DNA of 64,000 bases from Octopus vulgaris. Lineage: Eukaryota. Below are positions 5,999 through 62,995 of this stretch, piece after piece. Within the stretch, counting starts at the first letter, position 1; the number at the start of each line of letters is the position of its first letter. Position numbers and translations under genes: made by a program. The DNA lies in the NCBI GenBank assembly GCA_951406725.2, contig OX597816.1, forward strand, positions 48,856,001-48,920,000, in the 5' to 3' direction. The notes under the pieces were generated by a model. The model saw only the letters and a list, made by a program, of their open reading frames with translations. It was not told where the DNA came from and did no database searches.

Positions 5999-6678
5999 AT
6001 GTATGCTTTTATTATTTTATGCTGTTCCACTTCTGTATTTCTGCATTTCATACCAGCTGTGAAAGCTGGAAATGAAATCCTTAACGGAGATTTCGAAGAA
6101 ATGAATTCATTTAGTCAACCAACTGGCTGGAAGGCTATCGGTTGCAAGCTGGTTACATCAGAAGCAACAAAAGCATCCGGTGACAGAAGCGTTGTAGTCA
6201 CAAGTCGAGCCGGTTACTGGGCAGGACCACGTCAAGTTATCAATGGTACACAACTTGCTGGAAAGCGGTTTATCATAGCCGCCTGGGTTAGACTGGGGGC
6301 CACAAACGACATCACAAACAAGAGCACAATAAGCAATGGTCTTTTAACTGAGAAAGAGAATAGTTTCTCTGGTAGGCATAGAGGCTATCGTATCCAGATT
6401 GTAGCGAAATACAAAAACGGATCAAAAGAGATTTATGACGTTATTGGTTCAATAGGAGCAATACACGAAGAATGGCGCCAGATTCTTGAAAATCATGTGT
6501 TTCCTAAAGCATTAACGGGATTAGTAACAATTTTCGTTCAAGGAGAATACGGCATATTCCCATATTTCGATTTCTATGTCGACGATATATCCATTAGAAG
6601 TTGGAAGGCACCGGAAGGTTGGCGAGAGGAGGCTAACCGACGAATCCGAAAGTATCGACAACGTGAAGTGGAATTAGT
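5999..6678 (+). CDS. Exon 1: signal peptide + CBM4_9/CBM22-like module + helix leading into GH10
   Basis: [23 protein letters not shown] hydrophobic leader; ILNGDFE start motif, WAGPRQ and FYVDDISI end motif; [13 protein letters not shown] typical of eukaryotic GH10s; donor GTAAGT at 6679 (phase 2). Confidence 0.9.

Positions 6679-62995: not shown

Follow-up and report, generated by a model that had tools for sequence, protein, structure and literature searches.

Introduction

GH10 enzymes work by a double-displacement mechanism on two glutamates, and alanine mutants of the subsite Asn and Lys residues in bacterial GH10s lose much activity. The Asn of the -1 subsite binds O2 of xylose, and the Lys of the -1/-2 subsite binds O3 of the -1 xylose and the ring oxygen (PMC5738707). 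Bacillus sp. KW1 XynA (7D88/7D89) is a xylanase also active on cellulosic substrates (PMC6408826). In bivalves and limpet, the survey by Wang et al. 2020 counts 2–13 GH10 per genome, with expression mainly in the hepatopancreas of the two bivalves profiled, and lists one GH10 and no GH16 laminarinase for O. bimaculoides (Table 1 therein). It reads the single cephalopod GH10 as the leftover of a contraction in a carnivore, and its main text does not contain the term "WSC" (PMC7560691).

Xylan and chitin/β-1,3-glucan are ligands of fungal WSC domains, and such domains also agglutinate cells of fungi (PMC9224591, citing Oide 2019 and Wawra 2019); a fungal β-1,3-exoglucanase carries tandem WSCs (PMC5336659). 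Animal WSC domains are also part of proteins with other jobs, namely polycystin-1 and glycerotoxin, a secreted annelid venom protein. A His-Glu motif marks the GH26 β-mannanases and is absent from the GH26 xylanase branch (PMC6556568).

Here we describe a gene in a 64,000-nt stretch of octopus DNA (the window) in which a GH10 unit is followed by an array of WSC domains. Its product has the same barrel and beta domain as XynA (rmsd 1.5 Å over 357 columns, 37% identity), the same two catalytic Glu and the same surrounding motifs. In contrast to the octopus protein, XynA keeps Lys, Asn and Gln at three changed sites, and its solved chain has neither CBM4_9 nor WSC. Gastropod, bivalve and amphioxus GH10s (P0017, Biomphalaria; P0006, Branchiostoma) share the signal peptide-CBM4_9-GH10-beta domain order at 31–33% identity, but have a canonical -1 subsite and no WSC in any examined. 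The 2–13 mollusc copies per genome given in the survey also contrast with a single copy in octopus (PMC7560691). Plant CBM4_9-GH10 xylanases are 33–39% identical over the GH10 region and some share Glu at the Gln site, but they keep Asn and Lys and have no WSC. The fungal proteins PoAlcOX, SiWSC3 and the tandem-WSC exo-β-1,3-glucanase, which we take to be of the Trichoderma type, use WSC domains to attach an enzyme or lectin to glycans. They belong to other catalytic families and another kingdom, and no GH10 partner was seen. GH26 β-mannanases carry His right before the acid/base Glu, as does octopus H362-E363, but they form a different family, and no GH26 occurs among the Pfam matches of the Argonauta and O. 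sinensis records P0001 and P0030. The likeness concerns one residue and may be a coincidence.

Results

Gene structure in the window

An earlier note on this DNA had proposed that 18 exons splice into one open frame of about 1133 aa. This was borne out: 18 exons on the + strand (5999-62995) give a spliced frame of 3400 nt and 1133 aa with 0 stops, and all 17 introns (202–7279 nt) are GT-AG with compatible phases (Table 1). The acceptor pyrimidine fraction was 0.47–0.88, against a background of 0.47. Six-frame scans with Pfam had shown that the first exon is long and carries CBM_4_9 and that several exons encode WSC. The homolog search with exon 1 yielded one protein among 966 candidates, P0001 of Argonauta hians (970 aa, with CBM4_9, GH10 and three WSC). 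Exon borders were set with homologous proteins: tblastn of P0001 gave 16 exons, the linker exon at 57659 was placed by inspection and the 60-nt exon 10 was taken from Octopus records. The splice model is thereby based on sequence signals and database models.

Exon 1 must be part of this gene as well, since the 25 residues at its end show homology with the beginning of the catalytic unit of XynA. The N-terminus is the only strongly hydrophobic stretch, and no other strongly hydrophobic 19-residue window is present in the model; secretion of the protein is predicted and highly probable. At exon 15 a tandem acceptor, 3 nt apart, fits database isoforms X1/X2, which differ by one Glu in both RefSeq species. 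These isoforms, and the 60-nt exon shared by the three Octopus records, hint that transcripts underlie the records. Exon 1 was matched in 20 of the 24 sequencing-run rows listed, with no RNA run among them, a result not informative on expression. A search for transcript-derived proteins across the GH10-WSC junction (query P0029) returned 17 proteins, 0 of them octopod.

Two further points concern the splice model. An assignment of 20 of the 1133 aa to intron-18 read-through was ruled out: those 20 aa are exon 10. Read-through of the exon-18 donor would give a tail that could possibly anchor an isoform to the membrane; the tail is absent from all records seen.

Table 1. Features of the locus, neighbouring repeats and orthologous records. 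Positions are those of the window unless stated; amino acids (aa) are numbered on the spliced product.
Feature	Position or accession	Strand	Description
Exon 1	5999..6678	+	ATG, predicted signal peptide (~aa 1-23), CBM4_9-like, first strand of GH10-associated beta domain; aa 1-226
Exon 2	13958..13994	+	37 nt; aa 227-239
Exon 3	19318..19467	+	aa 240-289; N281 (19441-19443) at the GH10 -1/-2 subsite Lys site
Exon 4	24624..24679	+	aa 290-307
Exon 5	25740..25877	+	aa 308-353; conserved His314 and Trp of the RGH..FW motif
Exon 6	28957..29128	+	aa 354-411; acid/base Glu363 (28982-28984); His362 directly before it, where Asn is conserved
Exon 7	33419..33529	+	aa 412-448; Glu433 (usually Gln), His435
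Exon 8	37996..38211	+	aa 449-520; nucleophile Glu465 (38044-38046), WGFW motif
Exon 9	39265..39475	+	aa 521-590; barrel end and C-terminal beta strands
Exon 10	43072..43131	+	60-nt phase 1-1 linker exon, aa 591-610; in three Octopus records, not in the Argonauta model
Exon 11	48950..49275	+	linker and WSC1, aa 611-719
Exon 12	51280..51502	+	acidic Ser/Thr/Asn-rich linker, aa 720-793
Exon 13	52479..52650	+	first part of WSC2, aa 794-850
Exon 14	52853..52986	+	second part of WSC2, aa 851-895
Exon 15	55031..55306	+	WSC3, aa 896-987
Tandem acceptor	55024..55034		exon 15
Exon 16	57659..57802	+	Thr/Pro/Lys-rich linker, aa 988-1035
Exon 17	58342..58513	+	first part of WSC4, aa 1036-1092
Exon 18	62874..62995	+	second part of WSC4, aa 1093-1133; phase-1 donor to exon 19 beyond the window
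Read-through tail	62996..63057		exon-18 donor read-through; 20-aa hydrophobic tail, stop at 63055
Exon 19	L002 5297-5580 (G000:C3:48925297-48925580)		5.3 kb past the window end; fifth WSC and stop
Tandem duplication	L002 3756-7785 and L002/L003 7773-11772 (G000:C3:48923756-48931772)		4.0 kb; each copy holds exon 19
LTR-retrotransposon-like remnant	1187..3055	+	broken, upstream of the gene; integrase core match 2661-2828 (E 1.1e-10)
Non-LTR retrotransposon fragment	7240..8492	-	zf-RVT match (E 4.7e-06)
Pieces similar to the non-LTR fragment	near 22400-23700, 56300-56630, 63770-64000		in introns
Arrays of ~184-bp repeat	42084..42672 and 61623..62167		head-to-tail; dispersed repeat, likely a SINE
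Local duplication	58700..59120 and 59480..59980		intron 17; ~400-500 bp, 861 bp apart (identical ORF translations)
O. sinensis orthologue	LOC115209445		without the first 279 aa
O. bimaculoides orthologue	LOC106882323/LOC106882324		split
O. vulgaris orthologue	CAI9719247.1/CAI9719249.1		split
Argonauta hians orthologue	GAB1606541.1/GAB1606542.1		split

The gene end lies beyond the window

The earlier note had counted four WSC domains. The array has five, the fifth lying in exon 19, on which the O. sinensis and O. bimaculoides records also finish. The full gene then has 19 exons and encodes 1227 aa: a predicted signal peptide, a CBM4_9-like module, GH10 and 5 WSC (~137 kDa without the signal peptide; 23 N-glycosylation sequons). 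Exon 19 is present twice in a tandem duplication whose copies are 98.5% identical (6 mismatches and 5 gaps, four of them in simple repeats). The second copy cannot give a sixth WSC because the first has its own stop. The duplication may be recent or an assembly artefact.

Octopod records hold the gene in pieces

The spliced product was compared with database proteins. It was identical to O. sinensis P0030 at 945 of the 948 aligned residues (99.7%), to a record named O. vulgaris at 411/411, to O. bimaculoides records at 872/905 (P0027) and 278/289, and to Argonauta records at 725/963 (P0001) and 189/235. The match is far beyond chance. The identities to the O. sinensis and O. vulgaris records put the host in the O. 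vulgaris group, in agreement with the octopus host that the earlier note had considered. The proposed domain order and a single intron-rich host gene are supported as well. Contamination, against which the earlier note had argued from the introns, was rejected: octopus-type repeats lie in the introns, and the locus sits within a 182-Mb contig.

The gene is less hidden than had been claimed, since automated annotations already hold most of it, and the fusion with it, in pieces. The whole 1227-aa chain is in none of the octopod records seen; each is truncated or split, with differing breakpoints, and the names are uncharacterised or automatic. We found no publication describing an octopod GH10-WSC protein in the literature covered, which holds few subscription journals. 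Searches for the WSC domain with GH10 gave fungal papers only, judged by title, and those for the WSC domain with cephalopods gave the annelid venom protein only.

These varying breaks of the database models would suit a GH10 gene next to a separate gene for a WSC-array protein, the two having been merged by gene predictors alone. However, GH10 is joined to WSC1 in records of four octopod species (three Octopus and Argonauta), and the database breaks lie elsewhere than the GH10-WSC junction. The strong phase-1 donor of exon 9 fits exons 10 and 11, each of the three Octopus records contains the 60-nt exon 10, and a hydrophobic-window scan of the model showed no second signal peptide. We therefore hold a separate WSC gene, raised in the earlier note as what would overturn it, to be very improbable, and one fused protein to be highly probable.

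A single GH10 locus, and GH10 joined to WSC in octopods only among the proteins examined

The genome was searched with exon 8, a Haliotis GH10 and a metagenome GH10, and the best candidates were scored. Of these, 1/1, 3/5 and 4/6 matched, all in the window; a single GH10 locus was found in this genome. A Pfam GH10 search of the genome gave 0 matches, although the gene is present, because the gene is cut into exons.

phmmer with P0001 against 1.84 billion representatives gave 15,038 matches at E<=0.001, and the best 150 of the 15,038 were taken up; weaker fusions may lie below rank 150. In a set of 180 proteins, 132 match GH10, 54 match WSC and 6 match both, and all 6 are octopod records, in keeping with the suggestion that the architecture is unusual. 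Scanned with a wider WSC profile, the remaining GH10 proteins gave no WSC stretch that scored more than 5 bits. Protein-atlas searches, which cover clusters of at least 50 members, gave no GH10+WSC cluster, and no squid or cuttlefish orthologue was among the matches listed, where their proteomes may be poorly represented. Accessory domains are not unique to octopods among animal GH10s, since one mollusc GH10 subfamily adds PCSK9_C-like C-terminal domains.

Two substrate contacts of the GH10 barrel are replaced

The GH10 profile PF00331 scored 137.5 bits on P0001 and 112 bits on P0030, the record 99.7% identical to the window product (cut-off 22.1). A single-sequence fold of P0001 had a pLDDT of 28.6, and an alignment-based model (68 rows) of the Argonauta CBM+GH10 part was used instead; it is a (β/α)8 barrel with a pLDDT of 92.8. 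Foldseek matched this model to 7D88 at E 1.6e-42, and the matches listed are GH10 xylanase structures. E363 (acid/base) and E465 (nucleophile) align with the pair of Glu that is mutated to Ala in the inactivated XynA 7D89. By profile, fold and catalytic pair the protein is a member of the GH10 family.

The active site was analysed in an alignment of 126 GH10 regions with more than 280 matched residues each, three near-duplicate or partial octopus records being left out by name. At the -1 subsite Asn, replaced by H362, the 124 relatives have 123 Asn, 1 Ser and 0 His. At the subsite Lys, replaced by N281, 104 relatives have Lys and 0 have Asn, in a column that one divergent subgroup makes less clean. 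Glu433 takes the place of the Gln ahead of the second His; here 114 relatives have Gln and 9 have Glu, plant xylanases included. Across the 22 active-site positions checked, the remaining cleft residues follow the family consensus, including the supporting His, Trp, Asp and Asn. The -1 subsite His and the -2 subsite Glu, Asn and Trp are all present, roles that we assign by the Cex numbering. Of the four residues that form hydrogen bonds in the -1 subsite, two are thus replaced, and two defining substrate contacts of GH10 xylanases are, as judged from the alignment, missing.

The catalytic Glu pair and the three derived residues are identical in Octopus and Argonauta; the sharing of the three is not significant alone against the 81% background identity. 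A search of the literature yielded no mutational data for the subsite residues. A-to-I RNA editing was considered and discarded, as the codons present, AAT and CAC, would not be turned back into Lys or Asn codons in this way.

Elsewhere in the alignment, a GH10 clade of 12 proteins of ~730-930 aa (P0116, P0080, P0094, P0126, P0133, P0141, P0142, P0155, P0163, P0171, P0172 and P0175) mostly has Gln in the subsite Lys column and keeps Asn-Glu, possibly another shifted specificity.

Phylogenetic position of the octopod GH10

Maximum-likelihood (ML) trees were built from 41 and 25 hand-picked rows, with 7–9 members of the gastropod/bivalve clade sampled. The mollusc clade was supported at 100/99 and the mollusc+amphioxus clade at 97/89 and 96/94, and the octopods fell in neither. 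Their stem was long (0.83–1.06 changes per site) and lay near Nematostella, plant and prokaryote-type groups, with no supported placement. Forcing the octopods into the mollusc clade gave a p-AU of 0.0165, a value to be read with the long branch, the thin sampling and a test chosen with the tree already in view. In a FastTree tree of all 126 rows the octopods grouped with animals (SH-like 95).

These data suggest that (i) the octopod GH10 lies outside the sampled gastropod/bivalve clade; and (ii) in the simplest reading, it would be an ancient animal paralogue lost or unsampled elsewhere. A separate acquisition may also account for it. Because the ML trees give no firm position, we claim neither vertical descent nor gene transfer.

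The CBM and the WSC array

In exon 1, CBM_4_9 (PF02018) scored 31.1 bits (cut-off 25.9) over profile positions 2-82 of 136 only. The region is all-beta in the Argonauta model, and the family Arg, Trp, Gly and Gln motif positions are retained. Pfam WSC matches lie in exons 11, 13, 15 and 17, and WSC (PF01822) covers 5 stretches of P0030 with 300.6 bits; each of the five domains has 8 Cys. Identity to Argonauta is 84–92% in WSC1-5, 81% in the barrel, 73% in the CBM, and 45% and 55% in linkers 2 and 3.

The WSC and linker modules are mostly bounded by phase-1 introns, which would be the usual exon-shuffling pattern. WSC2 and WSC4 are the closest pair (54%) and have a common internal phase-2 intron, and WSC3 and WSC5, both single-exon, are reciprocal best matches by alignment score (41% identity). 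The shared intron and the reciprocal match suggest an old duplication of a linker-WSC-WSC unit.

WSC searches of the genome gave 16 matches among 63 candidates, 6 of them at this locus. No donor gene for the array was identified, because the scored WSC3 matches elsewhere are fragmentary and 30–43% identical. Another locus, L020/L023/L026 (G000:C24:10.95-10.96 Mb, - strand), holds at least three WSC domains and an Ala/Glu/Lys repeat, and L024 appears to have a WSC followed by a PKD-like stretch, presumably a polycystin-like arrangement.

Discussion

We tentatively propose that the gene encodes a secreted, WSC-anchored retaining glycanase whose specificity has shifted off plant β-1,4-xylan, probably onto wall glycans of microbes (fungi or algae). 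Together with the CBM, the five WSC domains, carried on glycosylated linkers, would bind an insoluble glycan surface multivalently and keep the barrel in place on it, where E363 and E465 would cut by retaining hydrolysis. The -1 sugar would be other than xylose, or bound differently, and the target would be a microbial wall glycan. As judged from its residues, the enzyme is probably still catalytically active; a shifted specificity, if it is active, is likely by a slightly smaller measure, and a microbial or algal target seems the likelier choice over an animal glycan. The earlier note had doubted plant-xylan digestion in a carnivorous octopus, and this doubt is strengthened because two of the four -1 subsite residues are replaced (PMC5738707). 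It is equally conceivable that an enzyme without its O2- and O3-binding residues is weakened or dead. The WSC ligand data stem from fungal proteins.

Other readings compete with this one. An ordinary, perhaps weakened, digestive xylanase/cellulase acting on algal matter in prey guts or biofilm, with the WSCs as extra xylan-binding modules, would agree with the best structure and sequence match, a true xylanase with cellulase side activity, and with a CBM that retains the family Arg, Trp, Gly and Gln positions. Mollusc GH10s are mainly hepatopancreatic in the two bivalves profiled (PMC7560691) and a fungal WSC domain binds xylan (PMC9224591). We nevertheless regard a digestive role as unlikely, since the host is carnivorous, the octopod enzyme lies outside the sampled gastropod/bivalve clade and the two -1 subsite replacements are found in 0/124 relatives. 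Just as unlikely, in our judgement, is a catalytically crippled, lectin-like recognition or agglutinating protein, in which the barrel binds but hardly cleaves and most of the work falls to the WSC array. Lectins derived from dead enzymes have arisen in GH18 and GH16 and usually lose a catalytic acid, whereas here both catalytic Glu and the supporting His/Asp/Trp are intact in Octopus and Argonauta. Such a protein would, however, explain why WSC domains are more conserved than the barrel, the long stem branch (about 0.8–1.1 changes per site) and the loss of transition-state-binding residues (PMC5738707).

A glycanase for animal glycoconjugates, such as prey proteoglycan linkers, own mucus or egg coat, working for example in saliva or skin, suits a carnivore with a changed -1 subsite, and a scallop endo-β-xylosidase frees glycosaminoglycan chains. 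WSC domains also occur in the secreted annelid venom protein. The endo-β-xylosidase activity is in use, with no family named in the accessible text (PMC12279042). However, the literature searched gave no link between that activity and GH10 and nothing relevant on the salivary gland, and we hold this reading to be doubtful, a little more so than the digestive one. A further and more speculative reading is improbable: an old, separately derived octopod GH10 would have gained, by convergence, the His-Glu motif of GH26 mannanases and cleave a manno-configured or other non-xylan glycan. The WSC fusion would have arisen by exon shuffling, for anti-fungal or anti-algal wall attack in a lineage listed without GH16. 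We know of no cleavage of a manno-configured or other non-xylan glycan by a GH10.

The gene appears rebuilt rather than left over: a five-WSC array, strongly conserved, was added, and two substrate-binding residues that hardly vary in the family were changed. Activity on a new substrate would widen the known GH10 chemistry and show the effect of His for the clan's Asn. Animal WSC domains would also gain a ligand open to testing, and the protein would be a candidate for how octopuses resist fungi or fouling. Should the enzyme prove ordinary or dead, the locus would be a lineage-specific domain fusion of modest interest. In either case the full-length model mends split annotations in four genomes.

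A minor observation concerns Nematostella GH10 P0182, whose Cys-containing N-terminus (residues 23-130) has a faint WSC-like pattern with no Pfam match, scoring 5.4 bits, a value reached by 2 of the 492 scored shuffles. Should the pattern be real, P0182 would offer a second case of a GH10-WSC-like fusion in an animal that is carnivorous.
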